Below are positions 5,614-48,556 of a stretch of 64,000 nucleotides of DNA, one piece after another. The stretch comes from Alphaproteobacteria bacterium (GTDB lineage Bacteria > Pseudomonadota > Alphaproteobacteria > JAGOMX01). Where the stretch lies: positions 1,185 to 65,184 of the forward strand of contig JAGOMX010000004.1 in assembly GCA_017993335.1 (NCBI GenBank), written 5' to 3'. The notes under the pieces are model-generated. The model made no database searches and was not told the origin of the DNA. It saw nothing but the letters and a program-made list of their open reading frames with translations. Position 1 is the first letter of the stretch. Each line of letters begins with the position of its first letter. A program made the position numbers and the translations under genes.

Positions 5614-7644
5614 ATGGTGGTTTCTTATAAAAATTTGAGCACAGCGATGCTTTCCGTATTGTTGTTAACGTCTCCATCCTTTGGATCGGCGGAGGGTAGT
5701 GAACCTGACTTGAAAAAGGCGAGGGTTTCTCCTGGTTCGGATGATTTTGATTGGATGTCTTTGGTTGAGGTAAAAAAAGAACCAACCGATGAAAGGCGTG
5801 ATGCGGGTGTTGACCTGTTTTTGCTGACTCATGAGGGGATTAAAAATAATTTAAGACGAATTAATCCGGTTGATCCGGTTTTAAAGAGAAAACCAACGGC
5901 GAATTGCTTGCTTTGTTGTGTTTCGTTTTTGAATTGGGTTAAGACGGGTGTATTGACGCCGGCTCCGGCGGTGACTCCGGATAAACCCAATATTTTGATT
6001 CGCCCGAAAAATGCCGTGCTTTTAGATCAAGATGCGGCAAAAGCCATTCCTGGCCATGCGGTGGAAATTATTATTGAAGATGTGCAAGAAAAAACAGTGG
6101 CAGATCTAGATGTTATCGCTGTGGTAGAGCGAGATGGCCGCAAAATAATTTCGTTTGATCCTTGCGCGATGTCTGATTTAGAAAAGACTCTAGCGGATTT
6201 GCATTTGCATCCGGTTCGCGGCGGGGATTGTGCTTCAGGTCTTATGAGCCTGGGGTATAAGCCTGAATACATGGACAAGGTCGTTACGGAGGCTGGCATT
6301 ACCGGGCACTTTCTGAATTTTTATATGTATAGCGATGCTTCGGGATTCAGAAAAACATACATTGTGGATCCGCAGACTTCGGAAATCACGACCTTGGCAA
6401 ATTTCATAAAAAAAGAATCGAAGTATGATTTAGATACCGTGTACCTATGGTGGGATAGTACGAAAAAAGCCTGGGCTGAGCCTATTTCTTACGTCAAAAA
6501 AGAACCGGTCGCAGCAGAGGTTCCAGAAGATATTCTAACGGATGCCGATCCCAATCCCAGAAAAAGATCCGCAGAAATACCCCTGGAAGAATTGCAAAGC
6601 AATGACGCTCAAAAAAAACCTGCCATAGATGATTTTGAAGAGAACGATCGTATACTTGCGACATTTGCATGGAAAGATAAAGATAATCTTCTAGGGGATC
6701 TAGATCGTTTCTTAACCCAGGCGTTTAATCTGAATCAGCAGCAACAGTCTTTTTGGGTCATGGATATGTCCTTAAAAGGCAGTATCTACGCACAATCGAT
6801 ACTAAGCTGGATGTATTTTTATGGAAAAATATCTGGTGCTAGTGATTATACTTCCGCAGTATTTTATGCAAGAAAATCCGCCGATCAGGGGTATGCTCCA
6901 GCGCAATGTGGTTTGGGGTTTTTATATTCAAACGGCCATGTAGACGGCCAAGTGAATGGGGTCGAGGCTTTCAATTGGTATAAAAAAGCCGCCGATCAGG
7001 GGTATGCTCCAGCGCAATGTGGTTTGGGGTTTTTATATTCAAACGGCCATGTAGACGGCCAAGTGAATGGGGTCGAGGCTTTCAATTGGTATAAAAAATC
7101 CGCCGATCAGGGATATGCTACAGCGCAATGTAATTTGGGGAGGTTATATGCAAACGGCCATGTAGACGGCCACGTGAATGGGGTCGAGGCTTTCAAATGG
7201 TACAAAAAAGCCGCCGATCAGGGGCATGTTGCAGCGCAATATGGTTTGGGGTTTTTATATTCAAACGGCCATGTAGATGGCCAAGTGAATTGGGTTGAAG
7301 CTTTCAATTGGTACAAAAAAGCCGCCGATCAGGGGCATGCTACAGCGCAATATAGTTTGGGGGTTTTATATGCAAAAGGCCATGTGGACGGCCAAGTGAA
7401 TAGGGTCGAGGCTTTCAAATGGTGCAAAAAAGCTGCAGATCAAAATTATGCTGTCGCACAAGATGCTCTGGGGGATATATATGCCAATGGTTATCTTGGT
7501 AAAAAAAATTTAGAAGAGGCTTTAAAATGGTACAACAAAGCTTATTTACAGCAGAGAGATTTAGTTGAGCAAAAAATAATTGAGGTTAGGAAACAGATGG
7601 GGAAAATAAGGGCTTATAACTTGCTATTTCGCAATTCTCTCTGA
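5614..7644 (+). CDS. Sel1-like repeat (SLR) protein with N-terminal signal peptide and a unique N-terminal domain of about 400 aa; effector-like
   Basis: Signal peptide MVVSYKNLSTAMLSVLLLTSPSFGSA. Six tandem 37-aa repeats AADQGYAPAQCGLGFLYSNGHVDGQVNGVEAFNWYKK fit the Sel1 consensus (A..G...A...LG..Y..G.GV..d...A..WY.KAA). Confidence 0.85.
   Translation: MVVSYKNLSTAMLSVLLLTSPSFGSAEGSEPDLKKARVSPGSDDFDWMSLVEVKKEPTDERRDAGVDLFLLTHEGIKNNLRRINPVDPVLKRKPTANCLLCCVSFLNWVKTGVLTPAPAVTPDKPNILIRPKNAVLLDQDAAKAIPGHAVEIIIEDVQEKTVADLDVIAVVERDGRKIISFDPCAMSDLEKTLADLHLHPVRGGDCASGLMSLGYKPEYMDKVVTEAGITGHFLNFYMYSDASGFRKTYIVDPQTSEITTLANFIKKESKYDLDTVYLWWDSTKKAWAEPISYVKKEPVAAEVPEDILTDADPNPRKRSAEIPLEELQSNDAQKKPAIDDFEENDRILATFAWKDKDNLLGDLDRFLTQAFNLNQQQQSFWVMDMSLKGSIYAQSILSWMYFYGKISGASDYTSAVFYARKSADQGYAPAQCGLGFLYSNGHVDGQVNGVEAFNWYKKAADQGYAPAQCGLGFLYSNGHVDGQVNGVEAFNWYKKSADQGYATAQCNLGRLYANGHVDGHVNGVEAFKWYKKAADQGHVAAQYGLGFLYSNGHVDGQVNWVEAFNWYKKAADQGHATAQYSLGVLYAKGHVDGQVNRVEAFKWCKKAADQNYAVAQDALGDIYANGYLGKKNLEEALKWYNKAYLQQRDLVEQKIIEVRKQMGKIRAYNLLFRNSL
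6880..7545 (+). repeat. Six tandem 111-bp coding repeats (Sel1 units); the first two are near-identical at the nucleotide level
   Basis: Units start at about 6880, 6991, 7102, 7213, 7324 and 7435. Units 1 and 2 differ by about 1 nt. Confidence 0.8.
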
Positions 7645-8480: not shown

Positions 8481-9167
8481 ATGATTACCTTATATACGGC
8501 GCCGACTCCCAATGGTGTTAAAGTTTCTATTTTGCTGGAGGAACTTGGGGTTCCTTATCGTGTTCATGCGGTGAATCTGACGGCTTTGGAGCAAAAAGAA
8601 GAGTGGTTTTTGAAACTCAATCCCAATGGCCGAATTCCTGTGATTGTGGATCATGACAACCAAAATTTTGCCGTATTCGAATCGGGAGCGATCCTCGTGT
8701 ATTTGGCAGAAAAATTTAAGCAGTTCATCCCCGACGATCCGAAGCAGAGGTCCGTGGTGATGCAGTGGCTGTTTTTTCAAATGGCGGGAATCGGTCCGAT
8801 GATGGGGCAGGCGCATGTGTTTGTGCATTATGCTCCAGAGGTAATCCCGTATGCCATTAATCGTTATCGCAATGAATCCAGGCGTTTGTTCGAAGTATTG
8901 GAAAAACGACTGGAGGGACGCGAATATTTAGCCGATGAATATTCTATCGCCGATATAGCTAATTATACGTGGGTGCGTGTCCATAAGCATGGTGGAATCA
9001 ACGTGGAGGGGTTGCCAAATGTGCATGCCTGGCTAGAGCGTATTAGCGCAAGACCAGGGGTGCAAAAAGGTTTGGATGTCCCGATACCACAAGTAGAACT
9101 TGCGAAGAGAACACAGGAAGAACAAAAAAAGCATAACGACCAAATCAAAAATATGGTGCCTCAGTGA
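8481..9167 (+). CDS. glutathione S-transferase, Nu-class / YfcG-YghU-like
   Basis: [26 protein letters not shown]...[10 protein letters not shown]...[14 protein letters not shown] closely parallels E. coli YfcG. Confidence 0.8.
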
Positions 9168-9177
9168 AAGGGATGTT

Positions 9178-9372
9178 TTATGGATGATCGCTAGCCAGAA
9201 CATCCGCAAGACTCAAGGCCCGTACTTGTTTTATTGTTTTTCCAGATTTGTCTTTTATGTCAAACACTTGAAACGGGGTTTCAGGTGGTAGGCGACAGAT
9301 GTTTGTGTCAATGGTAATAATGTTTTCGCAGGTGTCCGCGTCATGGTCTATGAGTTCATGAGGATTCGTCAT
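9178..9372 (-). CDS. small hypothetical protein (64 aa), uncertain
   Basis: ORF only. It lies in the 370-bp gap between the GST gene and recF. No recognisable motif. Confidence 0.25.
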   Translation of the reverse strand: MTNPHELIDHDADTCENIITIDTNICRLPPETPFQVFDIKDKSGKTIKQVRALSLADVLASDHP

Positions 9373-9540
9373 TTTATCTCTTTCCTTAAAATTTTAGTAT
9401 ATGAACCGTTTCATATCGGTTTTGAAATGTTCCCGAAAATAATCGTTTTGTCTATCCGTAAAAAATACGGAGACGAAGCGTCTGGGGTACCGTGAAGGAA
9501 CTTTTGGTGTTGGGGGTGATCTTGTGGTAAAAGATATCTT

Positions 9541-13392: not shown

Positions 13393-14652
13393 CTATAAAG
13401 TTAAGGCTAGTCTCAAATCATTGTGTTCAAAGGCAGATGACATGCGATCTGCCTCGCGGTCTTTCATGCCTAGTAACTTTGCCTGCTCTCTCCATCCTGC
13501 CACCGCAATTCCAGCCTCATTTGCTATTCTTTTGGCAGATTCTTTTGAGAGGCCAAATCTATCTGATACGCTCAAGGCAAGTTCTAATGAAGCGCAGTCG
13601 TCTTCTTCATCTATTGCTAAAGAGAGGCGCCTGGGTTTTATATCCAAGGGGGTGGGGTTAATGTCATATGCGGGTGATAGTCTCCATCCATCTGAATTGG
13701 GTAACAAAAGCCCATGATTTCTCAAATGATCATCAGTGTTAGACACTAGAATGGAAAAAACGATTCTTTTCCAGAGCTCGATCAAGTCTTGCTGAGGGTT
13801 TCCACTATAACGACGCAATGCATCTGCTACCTCAAGATAGCTATGGGGATCGTTGTCGCCAGCTTCTAGAAGGCTCATAGCCGAGATAAATGGTATTCGT
13901 TTAACGCCAATGCGATCAAACCTGTTAAGTAATATGACCGAACGACCAGCAATTTTTAACAATTTATGACGTGTGACTCGCAGGCCTGCCTTAGATGCAA
14001 GGGTCAATGCAAGACTTTCCCAAGCTGGCAGGTCTATGTTATCTTCCGGATGAGGAAACTTTGCTATCAATAACTCCCCTTCTTTTGAACGCACGGAGGC
14101 CTTTGGTCTGGCCCCACCCAAAGAAGAGCCTGGCGCTAATAGCAGTCTCATCTCTTCATCATTTTCTTCCTCTTTTATAGCATGGGTGGTGGCCACAAGC
14201 AGGCGAGGTAAATCAATTAATAGAGGCACACGTTTTCCATTGACGGGTTGCGCTAAAAAAGCTCCCTCTAGTTTTTCCGAAAATCTTAGCGCTCCTTGCC
14301 GACATTCATCATCAACATTCAACAAAAAGTCTATCTCTTGAAGGGTGTGCGGGTTTTCACCTTTAGTCTTGGCTAGTCTCTGATGGGTTCGCCTCATGAG
14401 TGTTCTGCCCCAACGGTCTGGAGCTGAATCACCAATTGAGCCGAACAAAGCTCTGCCTTGTCCAGTATGAAATGGAGCTGGGTGCAAAGTTAATGCCGGC
14501 TCTAAGGCGAAGCGTGAAGGATTAGTTAGCCAGCTAGAGTCGTATTCAAAACTCGAACTTTCACGACCTTTCCGGTTTCTCGCAAAAAGACGCCCTACAA
14601 AGAAAGTGTTTCCTTCCCAATCCACATAGACAAATGCAATTTTGTCTGTCAC
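13393..14652 (-). CDS. hipA: type II toxin HipA-family serine/threonine kinase
   Basis: HipA N-terminal coupling domain (VYVDWEGNTFFVGRL), SLGGARPKASV motif and catalytic TDDHLRNHGLLL motif. The GTG start overlaps the hipB stop (GTGA). Confidence 0.85.
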   Translation of the reverse strand: MTDKIAFVYVDWEGNTFFVGRLFARNRKGRESSSFEYDSSWLTNPSRFALEPALTLHPAPFHTGQGRALFGSIGDSAPDRWGRTLMRRTHQRLAKTKGENPHTLQEIDFLLNVDDECRQGALRFSEKLEGAFLAQPVNGKRVPLLIDLPRLLVATTHAIKEEENDEEMRLLLAPGSSLGGARPKASVRSKEGELLIAKFPHPEDNIDLPAWESLALTLASKAGLRVTRHKLLKIAGRSVILLNRFDRIGVKRIPFISAMSLLEAGDNDPHSYLEVADALRRYSGNPQQDLIELWKRIVFSILVSNTDDHLRNHGLLLPNSDGWRLSPAYDINPTPLDIKPRRLSLAIDEEDDCASLELALSVSDRFGLSKESAKRIANEAGIAVAGWREQAKLLGMKDREADRMSSAFEHNDLRLALTL

Positions 14653-19121: not shown

Positions 19122-20078
19122 TTATGATTTTGGTTCAAAACAAAAACGACATTTCATCATAAGAAGAATCCCCCCCGCCTGCCTCATCGGCAACTGCCTC
19201 CAACCGGTACCTGCATCCGGATGCCGCCGCACTTTTTTATGCTCATATATATTGAAAATAGGGGTTTCGTTCATCTCGCCAAATCTCAAGATCGTATAAT
19301 TGAACCCCCAGGTGGTAATATCATCCCCACCATACCTACTAAGCATACAAACCGCCTTCTGCGATAAATCTGCTTCGGAGACGTTCCGTAGAAATGCAGG
19401 ATGGGTGGATATCTGCTCAGCAATACGTTTCAATTCACTCAACGTCAGAAGAAGAAGAATAGTTTTTTCAGTATTGGGATAAACCGGATTTAGAAATTTT
19501 TCTGTCATCCTCGTGACACACAGATCTGAAGGGATAGTCTTTGGCAGAATGAGCTCACCATTGGTCGTGTCCATATACATATCTGATAATTGGACATCAA
19601 TTACAGTTAAGCCTCCAGGTTCATAGCGGAAAATGCCGTTTTTTAGGGTTCTCTCATCCTGCTCCATCATTCGCAGCCTCAGATATGGCTCCGGGCTTTC
19701 CGGGGGTATAGGCCTACCAAATTTTATAGCTGGGAGAATAATTTCCCTTACATAATTAAGATTATCGGAGCCTAAGAAAAAGCGACACCAAGATTTACAA
19801 ACCAAGGCATAATCTGAGGTCAGTTTTTGCGCCAAAAATCGATTGGCAATAGTTTTTTTTATGTCCAACGGTATTCCAGGAAAAAATTCTTCATGCAAAA
19901 TGCGTGCAGATGAAGATTCTTCCGGTACCTCCATGTTAGCCAAAGCGAGGCGATGAACGGATGGAGACTCAAGTTCCAGAGGGGGCAGTCCATCTTCACT
20001 TGCAAGTACATTAAAATACCCTGCACTTAAGATCATGAGACTTGTGATTATCGCTAATTTCTTTGTAAACTTAATCAT
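19122..20078 (-). CDS. secreted hypothetical protein with an F-box-like motif
   Basis: Signal peptide MIKFTKKLAIITSLMILSAGYFNVLA. Residues about 68-100, IPLDIKKTIANRFLAQKLTSDYALVCKSWCRFF, match the F-box consensus LPxEIlxxIlxxLxxxxLxxxxxVCKxWxxl in spacing and key residues. Confidence 0.6.
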   Translation of the reverse strand: MIKFTKKLAIITSLMILSAGYFNVLASEDGLPPLELESPSVHRLALANMEVPEESSSARILHEEFFPGIPLDIKKTIANRFLAQKLTSDYALVCKSWCRFFLGSDNLNYVREIILPAIKFGRPIPPESPEPYLRLRMMEQDERTLKNGIFRYEPGGLTVIDVQLSDMYMDTTNGELILPKTIPSDLCVTRMTEKFLNPVYPNTEKTILLLLTLSELKRIAEQISTHPAFLRNVSEADLSQKAVCMLSRYGGDDITTWGFNYTILRFGEMNETPIFNIYEHKKVRRHPDAGTGWRQLPMRQAGGILLMMKCRFCFEPKS

Positions 20079-39363: not shown

Positions 39364-41577
39364 ATGACTCTATTCAAAATAACACGTAATTTATTTGCAG
39401 CTTTAATGTTTTTATGTGCATCTGTGCATGCCTCTAATCCCAGTGAACGTGCCGAGATTTTGTTTAGAATTTGTTGCGGGGATTTGACGATAGAGTCTGC
39501 CTATTCAGAGGAAAAATATAAGGATTTTAATATGTGTGTTAAAAATCTGGAAAGAAATATAAAGATTTTATCGTCTCCTGATGCAGATATGGGTATGAAA
39601 ATGGGGATGGCTAATCTTCTTTGTAAGGATCCAAGATTCTGCCATAAAAAAGAATACAAACAAATTGGGTTAAGATTTTTTGAAGAGTTGTCACTGTTGG
39701 GGAAGTATTCAGATGCCCAGTATATGTTCAGTTTCTTTCTATTAAAAGAAGATGATCCAGAATGTGTGAAAAAAGGATTGAAGTGGCTTGAAATATCTGC
39801 AAATGCTGGTGAGACTATGGCCATGAATGGTATGGCTTTGAATCTTCTTAATTCTACGTGGTGTGAGGATACGTTAGAAAATAAAAAGAAGGGAATGGCG
39901 TGGCTTGAAAAAGCTGCAAAATTAGGTTGTCCAGCTTCTCAATCTACTTTAGGGCGCTATATGGTGAGGGGGATGTATGTTGATAATACAAAAGAAAACA
40001 AAAAAAAGGGTATCGAATGGCTTGAAAAGGCTGCCGAGGCCGGTATAGTTTACGCCATGAATGATCTAGGTGTGTTCCTTATTCAATCAGGAGAAGAACA
40101 GAAAAAAGGTATAGAGTGGATAATGAAGGCTGCAGATTTAGGTCATGCGGTTTCTATGTCGAATCTTGGTCTTTTAATGATAAAAAATAAGTATTTTAAA
40201 GATACGAAAGAAAACAAGAAAAAGGCTGTGGAATGGCTTGAAAAGGCTGCAAATGCAGGCGTAATTTCCTCTATGAATGAACTAGGCAAGGCTCTTGTGG
40301 GGGCTATAGGCTGTGAAAATACACCGGAAAATAAGAGAAAGGGAATTGAGGTATTTATAAAAGCTTCCGATGGGGGAGATGCTGTATCCTCTTTTCAAAT
40401 TGCGTATTTTTACTTCACGGGAATGTCTGTGCTAGAGAAGGATTTCCAGAAAGCTATATATTATTTTGAGAGGGCAAATGATAAATATCTTGCGGACGAT
40501 TATATGGGGTTTTGTTATTTAAAGTTGTCTGAATACAGAAAATCCTTGAAACACTATGAGCTTGCGAGAAGAAGAGGAGCATTTGTATCGGATGCAATGA
40601 TTAAATACTTAGAATCTAAAGCGAATCCTCAATTTCAGGACCGTAAAAAATCTAAAAACAACAGTAAATCTAGAACAATTCAGGGAATTCAGAGCGATCT
40701 AGATCAACAAAAAATTCAGTTGCTGCAGCAGTATGATTCGGTTTCTACCCAATTAAAAAAACTGGAAGAGCTGAAGGTAAAAAATAACTATAAGTCGGAT
40801 GCGGGCGATGAGGTCTCTGCAGAGGAGTTAAAAAAGTATAGGGATGATTTTGTAAAAAATCATAAATCTACTTTAGCCAATAAACAGGAAAATATATCCT
40901 TGTTTCAAGATTATCTGATGAATATAAAAGATAAAATTTTTCACCAAAACCAAGCTTTGAGCATAAGCATAAGAATGGAAAATCAGAGAAAAACCATCCA
41001 GGATCATTATGATGCTTTTGGTGTGCTGTCTGTAGATGAAGAATCTAGAGAAGCAAAAGCATCGGCTAAGAAAAATGCACAACTGGTTTTGGATCAAGAA
41101 AAAGAAAAGGCGCACGCCAAACATAATAAATCTAATGCAAAGAAAAAAAAGAAGAAGTCAAAAAAAACGGTGCCGATAGCAACGCAAGCGGAAACAAAAG
41201 CAATCGGACCATTCTCCGATACTCGTTTGATCGTCAAAACAGAAGCTGATATACCAGAGGCGGCTATGCAGAAAGCTTATACAATTCTGAACGGAATTCG
41301 GGATTCCCGCACGATAGATGAGGTTGTCAATAAGTTGAAATCTCTGGATATCAAGGTAGACATAAAAAAAATATCATCAGACTACGCCGGTTGCCCAGAG
41401 GCTGATGTGGTTTATGAGGCGAGAATCAACAACCAATATCGTGTGATTATTCCCTTTATCCATGTGAAAAATGAGGCTATTGCTAATGACAATAATAATC
41501 GCACACCAGAATCCGATGTCACAACTTTAATATATCAAAGCGAAATATACATCTGCGATCCCCATGTGAAGCAATGA
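39364..41577 (+). CDS. Sel1-like repeat protein with signal peptide, Lys-rich coiled-coil segment and a unique C-terminal domain; effector-like
   Basis: Signal peptide MTLFKITRNLFAALMFLCASVHA. Repeats KKKGIEWLEKAAEAGIVYAMNDLGVFL, KKKAVEWLEKAANAGVISSMNELGKAL and others. A K-rich tract KKKKKKSKK. Confidence 0.8.
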   Translation: MTLFKITRNLFAALMFLCASVHASNPSERAEILFRICCGDLTIESAYSEEKYKDFNMCVKNLERNIKILSSPDADMGMKMGMANLLCKDPRFCHKKEYKQIGLRFFEELSLLGKYSDAQYMFSFFLLKEDDPECVKKGLKWLEISANAGETMAMNGMALNLLNSTWCEDTLENKKKGMAWLEKAAKLGCPASQSTLGRYMVRGMYVDNTKENKKKGIEWLEKAAEAGIVYAMNDLGVFLIQSGEEQKKGIEWIMKAADLGHAVSMSNLGLLMIKNKYFKDTKENKKKAVEWLEKAANAGVISSMNELGKALVGAIGCENTPENKRKGIEVFIKASDGGDAVSSFQIAYFYFTGMSVLEKDFQKAIYYFERANDKYLADDYMGFCYLKLSEYRKSLKHYELARRRGAFVSDAMIKYLESKANPQFQDRKKSKNNSKSRTIQGIQSDLDQQKIQLLQQYDSVSTQLKKLEELKVKNNYKSDAGDEVSAEELKKYRDDFVKNHKSTLANKQENISLFQDYLMNIKDKIFHQNQALSISIRMENQRKTIQDHYDAFGVLSVDEESREAKASAKKNAQLVLDQEKEKAHAKHNKSNAKKKKKKSKKTVPIATQAETKAIGPFSDTRLIVKTEADIPEAAMQKAYTILNGIRDSRTIDEVVNKLKSLDIKVDIKKISSDYAGCPEADVVYEARINNQYRVIIPFIHVKNEAIANDNNNRTPESDVTTLIYQSEIYICDPHVKQ

Positions 41578-41583
41578 GTTTGT

Positions 41584-42177
41584 TTAGACAAGAGTTTTCC
41601 TCCGATTCCAGAGCCACGTGATTGCGCACAATAGGCTGAGGCCTAGGATGGTGTGTTTGGGGATGCGGTCTTGATATATCAGATAGAGTAAGGGGGCTGC
41701 GGAGAGGAGGATGAGGAAATAGCCTAAGGCTTGCGGGGTTTGTTTGTATTTTTCCCGAGCCAGCATGACATGCGCCAGGATGACGACCAAACTTCCGGAG
41801 ATAAAGGCGCCGGCGATATCTCGGGGGTAATGATAGCCTTTTTGGACCAAGGCAAAGCCAGTGGCGGCTAAAATACCTGTGAGCGCTATTCGCACCCATG
41901 TTTTCGGGATGCGGGTAAATAGCCAGCCATAAAAACACATGGAGCCTTGAAAATGCCCGCTGGGAAAACCAAATCCAGGTAAATCCATAGGGCGAGGCAG
42001 GCCAAAAAAGGCTTTGAGGGCTGGGTTCAGAACCATCGAAAAACACGCCAGCAAAATCGCCACGCCCCAGGTTGTTTTATCGTAATAAAAGAATCCCAAC
42101 AAAAATAAGCTGAAAACCGTTACAGGGTTTGAGAAAACCAATAAAACGCTGGCTAAATGATCGAGAAAATTTTCCAT
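41584..42177 (-). CDS. PAP2-family (type 2 phosphatidic acid phosphatase) membrane protein
   Basis: All three PAP2 motifs are present: KAFFGLPRP (Kx6RP), FPSGH (PSGH) and GYHYPRDIAG (SRx5Hx3D variant). Confidence 0.8.
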   Translation of the reverse strand: MENFLDHLASVLLVFSNPVTVFSLFLLGFFYYDKTTWGVAILLACFSMVLNPALKAFFGLPRPMDLPGFGFPSGHFQGSMCFYGWLFTRIPKTWVRIALTGILAATGFALVQKGYHYPRDIAGAFISGSLVVILAHVMLAREKYKQTPQALGYFLILLSAAPLLYLIYQDRIPKHTILGLSLLCAITWLWNRRKTLV

Positions 42178-42192
42178 AGGGTTAGGCTCACT

Positions 42193-43290
42193 TTAGTTTT
42201 GAGGGTTGTTAAAAAAGATTAACTTTTTTATTTCTTTTAGAAGCATGGGAAATTGTAAAAGGCCTGAAAGGCTATCCCCTGGAAGGCTTATATCAAAACC
42301 TCTTCTTTGTGGAGATGAGACTTCATTCTGTGAGGTTTTTTTTGTGGCGACTAGAGCTACGGAGTCTTTTTCTGCATACCGAGTCATATCAAAACAATCC
42401 TCGCACTCAAAACCGCTCTCTTTTATATACGTCAGGATTGATTCTTTGCTTATAAAAAAGGCGCTACCGGGAAAGGATTGCGGCTGGTAGGGGGATAGAA
42501 CATGAAAAAAACGAAAATAGCCGGGATCTTTTAAAAAGTACGACCCCAGAAAATACAGCACCGATGTGAGGTATCCTTCGGATACATAATGGCTTTGAGG
42601 GGTGCGAATCTTTAAGAAAAGTTTGCCGTTATCCCGCAGGGCATCATGAATATTTTCTAACGCGAGGGCTAATGTTTGGGGATTTAAATAGGCTGCCACA
42701 TCGGACATTAAGGCAATGTCGGCTGAATCATTGTTGAGGAATCCAGGGATTTCTATGCCCCCACAAATGGTTGTAACCGTGCATTGAGGGTCATAACGGT
42801 GGCCTGAATAGGTGGCGATTTGCTGATGCGTGAGATTGCCTTTGCTTTCAGATCGCAAACTCTGTGGGCTTTCCGGGATCAAATTTTTCCAGGCGATGCT
42901 GAGGTGATTTTTGCTTGGATCTACAAGTGTGGCGTTTAAGTTGGGGTTGAGGTCTAAAGCTCGTTTTGTCCAATAGCCAAAGGCGCAACCTACATCTAAA
43001 ATATCCTTGGCATTTAAGGCGGCGCTTAAAAACAGTTCTGTTAATTTGTCCGCATGTATTTCCATAAATCCATTTTGGTTGAATGTGGGGATGCGGTGTG
43101 AATTTTCCACAGGATAGATGTCTTTTCCCTTGTAGGGAATCAGGAAGAATGGGTCGGGGCCTTTATAGACAGTTAGGGTGGATTTTTGGGTGTTATTTTC
43201 AATCCTCCAGCCTGTGTCATCACTGCCATAAGCGACCGCTTGTAGGAAGAAGAAAACGATCAATAGGTTTTTAAATAAAGCTGCTTTCAA
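42193..43290 (-). CDS. secreted class I SAM-dependent methyltransferase domain protein
   Basis: Signal peptide MKAALFKNLLIVFFFLQAVAYG. Methyltransferase motif I ILDVGCAFGYWT and motif II-like LVDPS. Confidence 0.7.
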   Translation of the reverse strand: MKAALFKNLLIVFFFLQAVAYGSDDTGWRIENNTQKSTLTVYKGPDPFFLIPYKGKDIYPVENSHRIPTFNQNGFMEIHADKLTELFLSAALNAKDILDVGCAFGYWTKRALDLNPNLNATLVDPSKNHLSIAWKNLIPESPQSLRSESKGNLTHQQIATYSGHRYDPQCTVTTICGGIEIPGFLNNDSADIALMSDVAAYLNPQTLALALENIHDALRDNGKLFLKIRTPQSHYVSEGYLTSVLYFLGSYFLKDPGYFRFFHVLSPYQPQSFPGSAFFISKESILTYIKESGFECEDCFDMTRYAEKDSVALVATKKTSQNEVSSPQRRGFDISLPGDSLSGLLQFPMLLKEIKKLIFFNNPQN

Positions 43291-45086
43291 CCTTTAATAT
43301 CCTTAATTGGTGACATGATGGTTTCATCATGGGGGTGAAAAATTCCGCGGACTTGTGTATAGATGAGGTTCAGCAGCGATCCGATGGCCCCGAGTGAAGA
43401 GGATAGATCATTTTGCGAAACCTCTATTTCATTTTCATCTGTATGACCAAGTATGAATTTTTCCAGCTGCTCTGTAACGCTGAGTGGACGTGGGAATATT
43501 TGTAAGGGGACAGTTTGGTCTGACAGAGATGTCATATCTTTTGCAACCGCGATGGCTTCATGAAGGTCGCCGAGTTTGTCAACTAATCCAAATTTCAAAG
43601 CGTCTTCACCGGACCATACACGTCCTTTTGCTATTTCCTGCACATGTTCCTGCGGCAATTTTCGACCTTCAGCAACGCGTTCAATAAAGTTTTGGTAGAT
43701 ATTGTCGAGAGAAGATTGTAACCGTTCCCAGCCCTGGGGGGTGTAATCAACAATATTTGACCACATGCTGGCATTGTCGCCAATTTGCACTTGATCCCAG
43801 TGAATACCAAGCTTTTCCCAGGCTTCTTTTGTTACCCACTTACCGCCGAGCACGCCGATGGATCCTGTAATTGTGCTCGGGTGAGCCACGATACTATCCG
43901 CATAAGCAGAAATCCAATATCCACCAGAAGCCGCCACATCGCTCATGGAGATGATGACCGGTTTGCCTGATTGTTTAGCCTTGCGTAAGGCCCTTAAAAT
44001 GGTTTCCGAAGCCACTGGCGATCCGCCTGGACTGTTGACGCGAAAGACAATGGCGGCGACATCTTCATCGGCGACGGCATCTTCAAAAGCTTTTTTAATA
44101 TGGGCCGGGTTCATGGAGTCGTTGTTAAAAGGAACGTTCATCGGTTGAGATCGCATAATCGCGCCATTGCCAAAGATGATCGCAATTTTTTGCGTCCCCG
44201 CCTTTACGGCTGGTAATGGATTGGCCGCTAAATAGTCTTGATAATTTACGAAGGAAAACTCATTCTTAATCTTATCGCGGATGTATGGGGTTACTTCATC
44301 AAAATAATCCACGCGATCCACCATGCCGAGCTTCAGCGGATCGGATCCAAAGAGTGGGCCTTTATGGATGCTGTCCCACACATCCGGTTCGTTTAACTCA
44401 CGCGATAAGGCCACATCCCGGACAATTTGGTTCATTAAGGAATTTAAGAGGGCTTGTGTAGATTCTTTACTGGCTTTTGTCATAGCGCTTTCGGTGTACA
44501 TATCTAGCGCAGATTTATATTCTTCCCGTTTACCGATTCTCGATTGCACACCGATAGAATCCAGCGCTTGCTTAGCAAAAGGCATTTCAGCATATAGACC
44601 CGTCATGCATATGGCGCCCATGGGTTGAATCCATATTTCTTCAAACGCCGATGCCAGGTAGTACGGAATTGTGCCTGGAGACATTTCACCAAAGGTATCC
44701 GCATGAGCAATCGTAAATTTTTCTTGGTCTCGCCCGGATACACGAAACCGCATAATTGCATTACGGATTTCTTGAGTTTGTGCGAGCCCTAAGCTGGCTT
44801 GGTCCAGGCGGGCTACGATACCAATAACTCGAGGGTCTTTGCTCGCCATATCTATAGCGTGGACAATATTATAAAGTGAATGCGCTGGTAGAGAAAATAA
44901 GCTGTTCAGACCACTGGCGTCCGTATTTTCCGCTATGCGACCGCTAAATTGCAAATACAATACAGATCGAGCTTGAATTTCCTTGTGCTGACCTTGATTC
45001 ATTTTGGCGATCACAAATATACCGATTACGGAAAATAGCACCATCCCACCTATAGATGCGAGTATGCCAACGATCAAGCGCTTCAT
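43287..45086 (-). CDS. sppA: signal peptide peptidase SppA (protease IV, 67K type, S49 family)
   Basis: N-terminal TM. Duplicated S49 domains with the catalytic region VNSPGGSPVASE...SDVAASGGYWIS. 599 aa. Confidence 0.85.
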   Translation of the reverse strand: MKRLIVGILASIGGMVLFSVIGIFVIAKMNQGQHKEIQARSVLYLQFSGRIAENTDASGLNSLFSLPAHSLYNIVHAIDMASKDPRVIGIVARLDQASLGLAQTQEIRNAIMRFRVSGRDQEKFTIAHADTFGEMSPGTIPYYLASAFEEIWIQPMGAICMTGLYAEMPFAKQALDSIGVQSRIGKREEYKSALDMYTESAMTKASKESTQALLNSLMNQIVRDVALSRELNEPDVWDSIHKGPLFGSDPLKLGMVDRVDYFDEVTPYIRDKIKNEFSFVNYQDYLAANPLPAVKAGTQKIAIIFGNGAIMRSQPMNVPFNNDSMNPAHIKKAFEDAVADEDVAAIVFRVNSPGGSPVASETILRALRKAKQSGKPVIISMSDVAASGGYWISAYADSIVAHPSTITGSIGVLGGKWVTKEAWEKLGIHWDQVQIGDNASMWSNIVDYTPQGWERLQSSLDNIYQNFIERVAEGRKLPQEHVQEIAKGRVWSGEDALKFGLVDKLGDLHEAIAVAKDMTSLSDQTVPLQIFPRPLSVTEQLEKFILGHTDENEIEVSQNDLSSSLGAIGSLLNLIYTQVRGIFHPHDETIMSPIKDIKG

Positions 45087-45253: not shown

Positions 45254-46543
45254 ATGTCGAATCCTTTTTTTGCCGTCTTTGTCGTCATGGTTTTTGTGGC
45301 GAATATTTCTCGTTCTTATGCCTCTGATTTGCCTGAATCGTTACCCTCGCAACATTCTTATTCATCTATGTTATTTCGTCCGTTCAATGCGGTGTTGGAT
45401 GTGGTTTGTGCGCCTTTGCATTTTATGTCCACGAAGAGTTACGCGGAGCAACTGGAGGATAAATTCAAAACCATATCGAAAGTTCTCCATAAAAAAGTTA
45501 TTTCACCGGAACTTAAAGTAGATGTTTTGCATGATCTTGAATCCTGTGCTTCTGCAGGGCATCCGCAGGCTATGTATGTGTTTGGCTCTTTATTGTTAGG
45601 TTGCCCTGCAGAGCCCTATAATGCCCTAGAAGCCCTTATTGAACGGGATCGAGATTTGGGTTTTCAATATGTAGATGCGGCTGCGAATAAAGGGAGCGCG
45701 GAGGCAATAAGTTTACGGCAGCAATGTTGGGGCGCTACGAAGTTAGAATCTTTAGTAAACGATAGTTTGGAAGTGGCCAGCGATGAGGAAAAACAGAAGT
45801 TTGCAGCTCGTGTGACCGAAGAAATGCCGGAGCTCGTGCGCGTTAATCCTCATGCGGCCTTTTATTGCTGTGATGCCATTTTAAATAAAGAAAAATCGGC
45901 TTATCCGTGGATGTCCAGTTCATCATTATCCTTGCTGGATCAACGAACGATTATGAGTCCTTTATTGAAATTCGCTGTTAAAAATAATGTTTTAGAAGCC
46001 AGGCGGTTAATGTATTTTCTGGAGCAAGAAGACGCGGTTTATGTCCGTGTCTGTGAATCCATCATGAAAAATCCAGAGAAAATCATCAAAGGTTTGAGTA
46101 TGTGGGATCCAGGATATTTGCAAGAGCATATTAGTTTTCTTGTGGAACAAACCATTGAGGAAAGAGGGTATGTCTTAACGAAAGAATATGCCCTGTTTAT
46201 AAAGTCCGTTATGGGGCTTCGTATGAATCAAGTTTTTTACTTTCTCGGGTCGTATTTTAGTTACATCCGAATTTCCCGGGCCACTGAATTTAATGATGGG
46301 GAGATCGGTACTTTGCTGCATGTAATGAGCGTGCGTAAAATGGGGGATCTTCTTGTGGGTAAAACAAATTATTTCTTAGAACCTATCTGGCATAAAGATT
46401 ATGAAAAAGGTCTTTCTGTCGATTTCACCGAACATAAACTGTATTGTGCCGTAACGAAGCTAGATGTGCATTTAGCGTTAGGGATGTTATTGGATTTTGA
46501 AGATCATCCTTTTCCGGAGGTAGCTAACCTGGTGATGGAATAA
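45254..46543 (+). CDS. secreted hypothetical protein (429 aa) with a single possible Sel1-like unit
   Basis: Signal peptide MSNPFFAVFVVMVFVANISRSYA. CASAGHPQAMYVFGSLLLG resembles a Sel1 repeat. Confidence 0.6.
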   Translation: MSNPFFAVFVVMVFVANISRSYASDLPESLPSQHSYSSMLFRPFNAVLDVVCAPLHFMSTKSYAEQLEDKFKTISKVLHKKVISPELKVDVLHDLESCASAGHPQAMYVFGSLLLGCPAEPYNALEALIERDRDLGFQYVDAAANKGSAEAISLRQQCWGATKLESLVNDSLEVASDEEKQKFAARVTEEMPELVRVNPHAAFYCCDAILNKEKSAYPWMSSSSLSLLDQRTIMSPLLKFAVKNNVLEARRLMYFLEQEDAVYVRVCESIMKNPEKIIKGLSMWDPGYLQEHISFLVEQTIEERGYVLTKEYALFIKSVMGLRMNQVFYFLGSYFSYIRISRATEFNDGEIGTLLHVMSVRKMGDLLVGKTNYFLEPIWHKDYEKGLSVDFTEHKLYCAVTKLDVHLALGMLLDFEDHPFPEVANLVME

Positions 46544-46548
46544 GTTGT

Positions 46549-47850
46549 TTACTCTTCCGGGATGATGTCGGCTGGATCAAATGTGTGCATTAGGCTGATT
46601 TCATTATAGTTCAATGAGTAGGGATCGAATTTATTCTCTGGTTTTTGGTAGAACATTTTTATGGCCATCACGTATGCGGTTACCATTTGATCTAAAAACG
46701 CTTGGATTTCGGATTCAGTGGTTAGTTTTAAGGCTGAACATGCTTCGCGGAATTCATGGTCAAAATGACGGCGGATGACTTCATTTTCATGACGTGCTTT
46801 GCCGATCAGGGCGTTGAGTAGTAACGTCATTTTCTCATCCGAAGTTATGATGCCATCCGATGATTCTTTAGCGTCTAAGGCTTTTTTGAGGTGAGGGTGA
46901 TCTTTAAATATCTCAAGACAGGCTTCTTTTTGCTGCTGGGGTGAGGTGAGTTCTTGAAACAGTTTTTGCAGGACATATTGTGTGCACGATGCGGCTATTT
47001 TTTTTATTTCTGCTGGATCCAAATCCGGAGAGGCTTTCGTAATAAAAGCTTGTAGATCTGATTCTATGCGTTCTGGCTGGATAAATATCTTGCCACGTTG
47101 ATAAGTCGACAACACATTGGCTACGGCGTTAAGACGATGTGTAAAAGGCGAATCTTGCTGTAGGTCACGCATGGTGGCTTCAAAAGAAAAGGCAAAACGA
47201 TGCAAATACTTACCGCCTTTCATGAATGTTTTAGAATCCAGGGGCTCTGGCGTTTCTATTTTATGGATAAAGTAACCTAGTTGCTCGCCTAGGCTGATGA
47301 GGTGCGTAAACGTGTTTGCCTTTGTAAATAAGTCTTTGTGGGTTTCTATAAGGTGCTTCCGTAGTTCATTTATGTTTTGAAACTTATCCGGATTGCCTTT
47401 GCGGAGATAGTCATTGACCATGAGACTGAGCACTTGGGAGATGGGTTGATCTCCGGTTACGATCAGTTGAAAGGCTTCTTGTGTAAAATAGCTCTCTGGA
47501 AAATATGTACCGCGTAGGGCAAAGAGTAGGGCGCTGTGAATTAAAAGGTCATCCTTTTCTTTTGTGGCGGCCTGAATAATGATTTGCATGTCTTTGTTGG
47601 CCAACGGGTCAGAAAAATTCAGTTTTTCTTTAGAAATACTCTGTTGTAGGGCTTCAGCGTTTTTATCCTGACTGAGAATTTGTTGAGACAAGGCCGCAAG
47701 AGATTTAAGGTCCACTAAAGCGTTTAAATCTTTGGGGTCTACGCCGTATTTTATTTTTAGCGTTTGTTCGTCTTGCTGTTCAGCTTTGTGGAGCTCATCT
47801 TCAAACTCTTCAATGCTTTTAATAAGACTTTTAGCTTCAGGGAAAATCAC
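46549..47850 (-). CDS. hypothetical alpha-helical protein (433 aa), no signal peptide, orphan
   Basis: ORF with coherent codon usage and no recognisable motif. Confidence 0.55.
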   Translation of the reverse strand: MIFPEAKSLIKSIEEFEDELHKAEQQDEQTLKIKYGVDPKDLNALVDLKSLAALSQQILSQDKNAEALQQSISKEKLNFSDPLANKDMQIIIQAATKEKDDLLIHSALLFALRGTYFPESYFTQEAFQLIVTGDQPISQVLSLMVNDYLRKGNPDKFQNINELRKHLIETHKDLFTKANTFTHLISLGEQLGYFIHKIETPEPLDSKTFMKGGKYLHRFAFSFEATMRDLQQDSPFTHRLNAVANVLSTYQRGKIFIQPERIESDLQAFITKASPDLDPAEIKKIAASCTQYVLQKLFQELTSPQQQKEACLEIFKDHPHLKKALDAKESSDGIITSDEKMTLLLNALIGKARHENEVIRRHFDHEFREACSALKLTTESEIQAFLDQMVTAYVMAIKMFYQKPENKFDPYSLNYNEISLMHTFDPADIIPEE

Positions 47851-47863
47851 AAGAAACTCATTT

Positions 47864-48556
47864 TTATATTTTTCCCAGGGGAGTACACGAGAATTGTGAA
47901 TGTTCCGAAAAATCTGAAGTTGTCCTAAGGAAAACGCTGTTTTTTTTATATTTTTCCATCGCTTCAGGATTTTCTATGTGTCTCATGGTTTGTAAGGTTG
48001 CCCCTGGGTGTTGGGTGTAAACTTCTTCATCAAAAGCAATGTCAGAGGTGTTTTGATACATGTAGACATGCAGCGTATCCATTAAGATTTTTGCCATGGT
48101 TTCTTGAAAAGCGGATTGTCCTTGCGCCACATTGTCAATGTCCGAATTATACCCCACCGTTCCGGTTACACCCCAACGGACTGGATCTAACGTAAAGGCG
48201 GCTAATGCTGAATTCACGAGTTTTTCTTTAAATGCTTTATCTATTTCACGAAACTCTTGCCACGAATAGGCCGTGCCATGTATCGGGGTGGTCATGCCCA
48301 CATCCAGCTTTTCTTTCAAGGAAATCCACGTGGCTCCGGCTTTAAATTGCTGGAAGGGAATGGGGTGTTTGTTTTTAAATTCATCAATTTGCTGCGTATA
48401 GGTTTGACCCAACATGTCTTCCCATATGCCCCTGGATATTTCATTCAGACTTTGCTGCGTTTCAATAACTTTGAATAATTCCTCTTTGTTCGCAGCAAAT
48501 GCGAATGAAGGTAAAATGCATAAGGTTATGATAATCAATGTTCTATATATATTCAT
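47864..48556 (-). CDS. secreted hypothetical protein (230 aa)
   Basis: Signal peptide MNIYRTLIIITLCILPSFAFA. Has a weak GS-x-DxD-like motif, TGTVGYNSDID. Confidence 0.55.
   Translation of the reverse strand: MNIYRTLIIITLCILPSFAFAANKEELFKVIETQQSLNEISRGIWEDMLGQTYTQQIDEFKNKHPIPFQQFKAGATWISLKEKLDVGMTTPIHGTAYSWQEFREIDKAFKEKLVNSALAAFTLDPVRWGVTGTVGYNSDIDNVAQGQSAFQETMAKILMDTLHVYMYQNTSDIAFDEEVYTQHPGATLQTMRHIENPEAMEKYKKNSVFLRTTSDFSEHSQFSCTPLGKI

Follow-up and report, generated by a model that had tools for sequence, protein, structure and literature searches.

A predicted exported class I methyltransferase coupled to sppA in the genome of an alphaproteobacterium

SAM-dependent methylation is treated as cytoplasmic chemistry, and this raises the question of what a class I S-adenosylmethionine (SAM)-dependent methyltransferase with a Sec-type signal peptide would do, and where it would do it. 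A gene of this kind, hereafter MT, lies in the 64,000-nt window that was analysed here (positions 1,185 to 65,184 of contig JAGOMX010000004.1, assembly GCA_017993335.1, Alphaproteobacteria bacterium). Coordinates given without a locus name are those of this whole window and are collected in Table 1; P numbers denote protein relatives, and L numbers the contigs or loci of relatives. An earlier note, made from the letters of the DNA, had placed MT in one functional module with a PAP2-family phosphatase and a Sel1-repeat protein, and all three genes are indeed present where it located them. The reading preferred here, to which a probability of roughly 0.45 is given, is that MT is an accessory, fast-evolving, Sec-exported enzyme that is coupled to sppA, the signal peptide peptidase gene directly upstream, and acts at the envelope.

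That MT belongs to the class I enzymes is supported by several lines of evidence. The protein scores above the Pfam gathering scores of Methyltransf_12 (40.3 versus 30), Methyltransf_23 (33.5 versus 27), Methyltransf_25 and Methyltransf_11. These four models, together with the SAM-binding motif I (ILDVGCAFGYWT) and the N-terminus (MKAALFKNLLIVFFFLQAVAYG), bear out the earlier description of a SAM methyltransferase with a Sec-type N-terminus. The motif I core, LDVGCAFG at residues 98-105, is glycine-rich and located at the end of strand 1, and its G101 and G105 do not vary across the family described below. In class I methyltransferases, an acidic residue at the end of strand 2 binds the ribose of SAM; in MT, the acidic D124 (ATLVDPS) ends a predicted strand (119-124) and is conserved in at least 90% of the family sequences. 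An AlphaFold2 model made with a 40-sequence family alignment has a mean pLDDT of 76, with 155 residues above 90 and a core above 90. Using this model, Foldseek retrieved class I methyltransferases (METTL6, NNMT, NTMT1 and others) at a probability of 1.0 and an E value of about 1e-11, in agreement with the seven-stranded alpha/beta fold. MT keeps all of the family-invariant residues (T69, N71, G74, G101 and G105) as well as the near-invariant D124, H129, G222, P231, P256, G257 and K317. Compared with its closest relative P0001 over residues 1-317, it shows seven synonymous and seven non-synonymous changes, and the resulting dN/dS of 0.28, although derived from a small sample, is consistent with purifying selection. 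Judged by fold and motifs, MT is an intact class I SAM-dependent methyltransferase with predicted SAM binding and catalysis. Its fold and chemistry are ordinary; it is the exported placement and the sppA-coupled architecture that are unusual.

The substrate is not indicated by these searches. The earlier note had looked to a structure-based search of the substrate-binding lobe, and the Foldseek matches, all of them generic class I methyltransferases with no specific match among them, point to neither a lipid nor a host substrate. The sequence of MT alone had no match in the PDB. When the family profile was used instead, the top PDB match was 5wp5, a phosphoethanolamine N-methyltransferase, with an E value of 6.5e-21 that is the sum of two domain matches. 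These span profile positions 49-155 and 29-165, which is the generic SAM core, and the best single-domain match was an uncharacterised archaeal methyltransferase. The 5wp5 match is therefore taken as an artefact of two summed matches and not as a sign of lipid or phosphobase specificity.

The second question is whether MT leaves the cytoplasm. The N-terminus (MKAALFKNLLIVFFFLQAVAYG↓SDD) has lysines K2 and K7 in its n-region, a hydrophobic core of about 13 residues (NLLIVFFFLQAVA), and a c-region with A20 at -3 and G22 at -1 before S23. By hydropathy, it is the sole strongly hydrophobic stretch in the whole protein. According to the rules for n-, h- and c-regions, cleavage by signal peptidase I would be expected at G22↓S23. 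There is no RR in residues 1-22 and hence no twin-arginine (Tat) motif, which makes it unlikely that MT is exported folded with its cofactor. The positive-inside rule states that the positively charged flank of a hydrophobic segment stays cytoplasmic. The charge is +2 ahead of the hydrophobic core of MT and net negative behind it, and the same pattern is found in P0002 and in a 96-aa open reading frame (ORF) of L005 that is described below. Taken together with the rule, this distribution predicts an N-in orientation, which would leave the catalytic domain extracytoplasmic even with the signal uncleaved. The flanking charges thus argue against the scenario that the earlier note had set against its own view, namely a membrane anchor with a cytoplasmic catalytic domain.

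The TTG start codon of MT is preceded by AAGGA. An alternative start at Met76, which would yield a cytoplasmic methyltransferase of 290 aa, was excluded, since the family-invariant PTxNxxG motif lies upstream of Met76. The signal region of P0001 is identical to that of MT. P0002 has the signal MFKKTYLFITMVLVAEVACS, with an ATG start and its own Shine-Dalgarno sequence, and the 96-aa ORF of L005 begins with MNKIAILVICITTVLVVTEANS, which is equivalent to the N-terminus of MT. The predicted export signal is thus kept across P0001, P0002 and the L005 ORF.

The genomic position of MT gave information on its partner. The start of MT and the stop of sppA overlap by 4 nt (TTGA; GGT-TGA / TTG-AAA), both in the window and in L001, where the MT-PAP2 pair is also present. 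In L003, which carries P0002, MT begins 2 nt after an sppA whose product is 60% identical to that of the window. This sppA is preceded by the same divergent 429-aa gene (X429) as in the window, and the contig ends 170 nt past MT, before any PAP2 position. In L005, the 96-aa ORF begins 3 nt after the sppA stop. L005 and L006 (= L012) were found by an SppA-alignment scan of GTDB genomes and JGI metagenomes; their SppA proteins are 59-61% identical to that of the window, and the closest genomes found are two metagenome-assembled genomes of Alphaproteobacteria bacterium. The JGI scan added only L012, which is the same species as L006, and no new lineage. In L005 and L006/L012, the block consists of X429, divergent from sppA, followed by sppA and PAP2 (47-48% identical) without MT and without Sel1. 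The next gene in L005, directly after PAP2 at 8875-9399, is a YkuD orthologue with 55% identity.

It follows from this comparison that the conserved partner of MT is sppA and not PAP2 or Sel1. The SppA distances do not group the two MT-bearing lineages as sisters, so MT at this position is most simply ancestral, with a loss in L006 and an internal deletion in L005. MT has diverged to 27% identity where SppA is still 60% identical; by such sequence comparison, it appears to be accessory and fast-evolving. A promoter-like site was found upstream of sppA (45143-45115), no terminator-like site was seen between sppA, MT and PAP2, and the three genes are probably carried on one transcript in this genome. 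GC-rich palindromic elements resembling repetitive extragenic palindromic (REP) sequences, e.g., CCCCTGCGAAAGCAGGGG, were also observed at L006:7792-8021 and L003:11190-11223. They fill the MT position in L006 or abut the end of the MT-bearing contig L003, and they may mark an MT deletion or an assembly break.

The C-terminal tail of MT deserves separate treatment. Two homopolymer indels (A8/A7 and T4/T5) distinguish the window from L001; they shift the reading frame of a 14-aa linker (MT residues ~318-331) and then restore it, and the 34-residue tail that follows is 100% identical in P0001. An identical tail behind a changed frame suggests that any sequence will do for the linker, whereas translation of the tail is required, with the caveat that both changes lie in homopolymers and could be assembly errors. 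The tail was modelled by AlphaFold2 as two helices (340-345 and 347-360), and its hydrophobic moment of about 0.5 marks it as amphipathic. On this sequence evidence, the tail appears to be under selection. The L005 ORF (L005:7798-8087, plus strand) lies in the 394-nt spacer between sppA and PAP2 and consists of a signal peptide and a tail without the methyltransferase domain, which it has lost or never had. Its tail DSLIGLLVFYNMLKDFTK is significantly similar to the window MT tail DSLSGLLQFPMLLKEIKK (shuffle p ~0.0004). No significant similarity was found between the window MT tail and that of P0002 (shuffle p ~0.13), nor among the mature N-terminal linkers of the three lineages (p 0.1-0.7). 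The idea that the tail imitates the C-terminal end of SppA in the manner of an autoinhibitory peptide was rejected, as comparison with the C-terminal 70 residues of SppA in three lineages gave a shuffle p of ~0.5-0.7.

Relatives of MT were sought with a word-indexed search of 5.8 billion proteins and with an exhaustive phmmer search of 1.84 billion cluster representatives. With MT as the query, the former returned only P0001, which is 95% identical and encoded on a 1.7-kb ENA contig; further word-indexed searches gave P0002 and a few family members. The phmmer search retrieved P0001, then P0002 (E = 9e-18, 27% identity), and then about 42 proteins with E values from 1e-10 to 1e-3. A search of GTDB genomes with MT itself found no relative. 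MT is thus nearly an orphan, with one relative at 95% and one at 27%.

The wider family (P0003-P0046) is metagenomic and uncurated, with proteins of about 240 aa that are annotated only as SAM-dependent methyltransferase. A cluster look-up gave metagenomic sources only, and an NCBIfam scan of the whole family found no model near its cut-off for any member. The family alignment is characterized by PTxNxxG[YF]M, a GxAxG-type motif I, D124, H129, (L)KxxGK(L)F, G222, P231, the (W)PG of P256-G257 and a C-terminal IAxK with K317. At ~25% identity, MT shares the N-terminal motif, motif I, D124, H129, (L)KxxGK(L)F, (W)PG and IAxK with the family and differs from it in three parts that typical members lack, namely an N-terminal linker of 35 aa, an insertion of 26 aa and a tail of 45 aa at the C-terminus. 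Both MT and P0002 exceed the family core by a signal peptide, a linker of ~35-45 aa, an internal insertion and a tail of ~45 aa. The coupling to sppA is confined to MT's own small clade. Seven other family members were examined, and none of them lies beside PAP2 or sppA; their neighbours are unrelated housekeeping genes.

Export signals are not restricted to this clade. An N-terminal hydrophobic leader, either a signal peptide or a lipobox, was found in about 9-10 of 40 family members. Canonical lipoboxes are present in P0007 (LLLIGC↓S) and P0012 (TLIAC↓L), and P0008, P0033 and P0044 are among the members with signal peptides. In a rough neighbour-joining tree, MT, P0001, P0002 and P0018 form one clade in which all proteins bear a signal, and the remaining signal-bearing members are scattered among signal-less ones, so that export signals have probably been gained or lost several times. 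It is a tentative and rather doubtful extension of this observation that the quarter of the family with a signal or lipobox methylates envelope or host molecules outside the cytoplasm with SAM made elsewhere, e.g., host SAM that enters via porins. The lipobox-bearing P0007 sits two genes downstream of signal peptidase I (Peptidase_S26; L018:2467-5521). This is a single case and probably a coincidence.

If MT is indeed an exported envelope enzyme, the following sequence of events can be proposed. Translation of MT would be coupled to that of SppA, and the Sec pathway would export the protein. The positive N-terminus and short hydrophobic core of MT would insert N-in, with the catalytic domain ending up in the periplasm, and the protein would either be cut free by signal peptidase I (AYG↓S) or stay tethered. 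The amphipathic C-terminal helix, carried on a sequence-tolerant linker, would probably hold MT at the membrane surface, where its substrate may be a part of the envelope: a protein of the outer membrane or periplasm, or else the head group of a lipid. The active sites of SppA and PAP2, which belong to the same transcription unit, would likewise face the periplasm. The SAM used there would have to come from a source other than the cytoplasm, most plausibly from a eukaryotic host by diffusion through porins. A host source is proposed because the genome is rich in Sel1 and leucine-rich-repeat (LRR) proteins, which are typical of host-associated bacteria. Uptake of host SAM across the envelope takes place in Rickettsia and Chlamydia. 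We infer export, cleavage, membrane association, substrate class and SAM source from what has been described above.

Several observations weigh against this proposal. No presence of SAM in the bacterial periplasm is known, and the intracellular lifestyle is inferred from the Sel1 and LRR content only. Phrase searches of the literature found no paper that describes a bacterial methyltransferase as periplasmic, exported, extracytoplasmic or extracellular, and the fold and profile searches (Foldseek, PDB profile and NCBIfam) gave no substrate information. The SRVLHF segment that is common in the family has diverged to MSDVAAY in the window MT, so its activity could be altered or lost. The gene has been lost in two sister lineages and is hence dispensable. 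Its start codon is TTG, and a 19-residue mean hydropathy of 1.8 makes an uncleaved anchor possible. The export and location of MT are predictions from sequence rules.

The strongest rival explanation, although unlikely, is that MT is a secreted effector. Lysis, outer-membrane vesicles or a type II system would release it from the bacterium, and it would methylate a host protein or metabolite with the abundant SAM of the host, the tail then serving to target host membranes. The cofactor problem would be removed by host SAM, and the fast evolution and patchy presence of MT across relatives are typical of host-interaction genes. The linkers of MT are disordered in the AlphaFold2 model, and the neighbourhood is rich in Sel1 and LRR proteins. 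The interspersion of signal-bearing and signal-less members in the family tree would also be easier to understand if an outside target were reached by different routes. A precedent exists in Plasmodiophora brassicae, an intracellular parasite that is reported to have a secreted methyltransferase with a signal peptide. However, no secretion-system genes are present within the window, and a Sec signal alone reaches only the periplasm. A case in point is RARP-1 of Rickettsia, an effector-like protein with a Sec signal that reportedly proved to be periplasmic (10.1101/2022.02.23.481736). The tight ancestral link to the housekeeping gene sppA and to an envelope operon better fits the resident envelope role that is preferred here.

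An improbable reading takes the methyltransferase activity to be incidental or in decay. What is selected would then be a small exported protein made of signal and tail that is translationally coupled to SppA and might act as its partner, regulator or preferred substrate, by analogy with SppI, whose gene lies downstream of sppA in Bacillus subtilis. The in-frame L005 ORF keeps the signal and a similar tail without the methyltransferase domain, compensating frameshifts preserve the tail, and in three lineages the reading frame starts between -4 and +3 nt relative to the sppA stop. SppI-SppA is a precedent for an operon-encoded partner of SppA (PMC7568657). On the other hand, all family-invariant residues are retained at a dN/dS of 0.28, and the absence of the ORF from L006/L012 shows that it is not needed for SppA function. 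The resemblance of the MT tail to the SppA C-terminus (p ~0.5) and to the P0002 tail (p ~0.13) is not significant, no homology to SppI was found, and the L005 ORF may be a mere remnant of an in-frame deletion.

Less probable again is a cytoplasmic MT, an ordinary small-molecule or RNA methyltransferase whose N-terminal segment is not a working export signal, because it acts as an N-out anchor or because translation starts elsewhere. Class I methyltransferases are nearly always cytoplasmic because SAM is, and about 30 of 40 family members lack a signal; the TTG start and a 19-residue hydropathy that is compatible with a transmembrane helix would agree with this. Against it stands the Met76 start, which would delete the invariant PTxNxxG motif, as well as the signal of the 27% relative P0002, kept behind an ATG start and a Shine-Dalgarno sequence. 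Moreover, the positive-inside rule predicts N-in in three lineages, and the lipobox-bearing family members must be exported.

The least probable account is the module of the earlier note, in which PAP2, MT and Sel1 act jointly on envelope lipids or at the host interface (e.g., PAP2 dephosphorylates and MT methylates one lipid): the three proteins are all predicted to be extracytoplasmic and the part that links MT to PAP2 stands as a probable co-transcription (same strand, 15-nt gap, no terminator, same pair in L001), but PAP2 orthologues follow sppA without MT in L005 and L006/L012, none of the seven other family members examined lies beside PAP2, the partner of MT is sppA, the Sel1 gene is convergent, low in GC and missing from all related loci, and the phosphoethanolamine N-methyltransferase match amounts to two generic SAM-core matches added together.

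Some known systems can be compared with the envelope enzyme that MT is proposed to be. The O-methyltransferase of Anaplasma phagocytophilum (APH_0584) methylates the outer-membrane protein Msp4; it is predicted to be non-cytoplasmic, and a periplasmic action has been proposed for it (PMC4636158). It may be regarded as the nearest functional precedent for MT, being likewise a class I SAM methyltransferase of a host-associated alphaproteobacterium that is predicted to be non-cytoplasmic. However, it is a Mn2+-dependent family 3 O-methyltransferase with no relationship to MT beyond the fold, and no family 3 O-methyltransferase appears among the Pfam matches of MT at E <=0.01. The Anaplasma gene also differs in being transcribed separately from the genes beside it (PMC4636158), where MT is probably co-transcribed. 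The OmpB lysine methyltransferases PKMT1 and PKMT2 of Rickettsia likewise have a class I core and act on the surface proteins of an alphaproteobacterium that lives inside cells, and they are believed to act in the cytoplasm (PMC8232902). One of their structures, 5doo, is among the PDB matches of the MT family profile (E = 3.6e-8).

The SppA-SppI pair of B. subtilis (PMC7568657) resembles the arrangement found here in that sppA is followed directly, within one operon, by a gene for an envelope protein. SppI differs from MT in being a polytopic membrane inhibitor without a methyltransferase domain, and the analogy is positional only, with no homology detected. Among eukaryotes, the secreted methyltransferase of P. 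brassicae and METTL9 (10.64898/2025.12.23.696137) combine a signal peptide with a SAM methyltransferase domain and act outside the cytosol of the producer; these enzymes belong to unrelated methyltransferase subfamilies and use the eukaryotic secretory pathway. In animals, the claim of a 'first secreted methyltransferase' was made in a preprint of December 2025.

Methylation of lipid A phosphate is assumed to precede export. The same assumption is made for the lysine methylation of OmpB (PMC8232902). What is unusual in the present case is the recurrence of export signals in the MT family, together with the order signal, linker, methyltransferase, linker and tail in a protein coupled to sppA. 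If exported methyltransferases of this kind are active at their destination, methyl transfer in the periplasm would be possible, or a new class of Sec-dependent host-directed enzymes would exist. If the extension to the signal- and lipobox-bearing quarter of the family were true, extracytoplasmic SAM-dependent methylation would be established as a bacterial process. MT would further give a handle on where the methylation of surface proteins occurs in host-associated alphaproteobacteria, and the ancestral coupling to sppA, together with the survival of signal and tail in L005, leads to simple testable constructs. If MT is inactive or cytoplasmic, the finding is reduced to an ordinary accessory gene.

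Table 1. Features of the sppA-MT locus and its surroundings, in window coordinates.
Feature	Coordinates	Strand	Basis
sppA, signal peptide peptidase A, 599 aa, first in the unit	43287-45086	-	Peptidase_S49 E 1.5e-70; TIGR00705 SppA_67K 340 bits vs cut-off 311
Class I SAM-dependent methyltransferase (MT), 365 aa, TTG start, predicted exported	42193-43290	-	Pfam, AlphaFold2, Foldseek
MT signal peptide, residues 1-22, MKAALFKNLLIVFFFLQAVAYG, predicted signal peptidase I site A-Y-G↓S	43225-43290	-	Sequence reading; modelled helix 2-20
MT low-confidence linker between signal peptide and catalytic domain, residues 23-58	43117-43224	-	pLDDT <50 at residues 25-57
MT family signature IPTFNQNGFM, residues 67-76, consensus PTxNxxG[YF]M	43063-43092	-	T69, N71, G74 invariant in 40 family sequences
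MT SAM-binding motif I, ILDVGCAFGYWT, residues 97-108	42967-43002	-	G101, G105 family-invariant; Pfam alignments begin there
MT lineage-specific insertion, ~26 aa, residues 142-167	42790-42867	-	Not in other family members aligned; pLDDT <50
MT linker, residues ~318-331, other frame in 95% relative	42298-42339 (indel stretch 42298-42344)	-	DNA alignment vs L001
MT C-terminal amphipathic tail FDISLPGDSLSGLLQFPMLLKEIKKLIFFNNPQN, residues 332-365	42196-42297	-	100% identical in P0001
PAP2-family membrane phosphatase of 197 aa, following MT after a 15-nt gap	41584-42177	-	PF01569 33 bits vs 27.2
Sel1-repeat protein, 737 aa, own signal peptide, convergent to PAP2	39364-41577	+	PF08238 E 1.3e-23, 83 bits vs 30.7
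YkuD-type L,D-transpeptidase	38698-39237	-	PF03734 E 1.7e-18
Exported 429-aa protein (X429), divergent from sppA	45254-46543	+	Upstream edge of syntenic block

As listed in Table 1, the envelope genes sppA, MT, PAP2 and ykuD on the minus strand neighbour one plus-strand gene, which encodes the Sel1 protein. PAP2 had been described earlier as a lipid phosphatase with all three motifs intact. Its membership of the PAP2 family and the motifs C1 (KAFFGLPRP) and C2 (FPSGH) are confirmed, but C3 (SRxxxxxHxxxD) is incomplete: in an alignment to PgpB of B. subtilis (5jki), HYPRD is kept and Ala-Leu stands in place of Ser-Arg. The orthologues in L005 and L006 likewise lack the Ser-Arg of C3. The activity of PAP2 can therefore not be assumed, and it is a superfamily member by its hidden Markov model score. 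The nearest solved structure is B. subtilis PgpB/YodM (5jki, E = 3.3e-6). PAP2 resembles PgpB/YodM and the small PAP2 lipid phosphatases in size, C1, C2 and the HxxxD of C3, and together with its orthologues it differs from PgpB/YodM in having Ala-Leu for the Ser-Arg of C3. A C3 without Ser-Arg recalls the phosphotransferase-type members of PAP2, and weak PAP2_C and PAP2_3 matches were seen. By a simple reading of hydropathy and charge, all motifs are on the periplasmic side. The stable partners of PAP2 are sppA and ykuD, which suggests a general role in the envelope, e.g., in lipid or undecaprenyl phosphate turnover. A 175-aa ORF at 41519-42046 on the minus strand was set aside as an out-of-frame overlap of the PAP2 gene.

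The Sel1 protein agrees with its earlier description as a 737-aa protein with a Lys-rich region and a unique C-terminal domain: it matches PF08238, and its 124-aa end has no Pfam, PDB or fold match. About 7-8 tandem repeats lie between residues 135 and 420, and the middle region is Lys-rich. The Sel1 and PAP2 genes are convergent, with stop codons 6 nt apart, and the GC content of the Sel1 gene (0.369) is the lowest nearby (0.43-0.48 in the others). A tblastn search for the Sel1 protein gave no match in any related locus. From these sequence features, the Sel1 gene appears to be a lineage-specific insertion between PAP2 and ykuD, outside the sppA unit. Its C-terminal ~124 aa (residues 614-737; 41206-41577, plus strand) are predicted to follow an alpha-alpha-beta-beta-beta pattern. 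A RelE/ParE-like nature of this region was considered and is unsupported, as there is no Pfam or PDB match, the single-sequence model has a pLDDT of 52.6, and all Foldseek E values are >=0.98.

On the other side of sppA, X429 is conserved in all four related lineages (25-28% identity), and tblastn places its orthologues in L003, L005 and L006 (E 3e-23 to 2e-43) ahead of sppA. The position of X429 is kept more stably than that of the MT or Sel1 genes, and the protein itself has only a weak TPR/Sel1-like match.

The remainder of the window is chromosomal housekeeping, with genes for aconitase and trigger factor as well as gyrB, dnaB, radA, alr, dnaE, dnaG, rpoD and groEL, among which Sel1, LRR and unannotatable proteins are scattered. 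A second Sel1-repeat protein of 676 aa is encoded at 5614-7644 on the plus strand (Sel1 E = 1e-47), and an LRR protein at 48609-49787 on the minus strand. The LRR and Sel1 content of the window is consistent with a host-associated lifestyle. Five ORFs of 230-716 aa have no significant Pfam family and may encode lineage-specific proteins: 46549-47850, 47864-48556, 30790-31575 and 19122-20078 on the minus strand, and 32133-34283 on the plus strand. An ORF for an AmpD-like amidase overlaps the end of dnaE by 32 nt (38201-38232). The presence of this amidase together with alr, YkuD and PAP2 indicates that the organism retains peptidoglycan metabolism. Finally, a gene for a HipA-family kinase toxin lies within the chromosomal region at 13393-14652 on the minus strand (HipA_C E = 3e-47).

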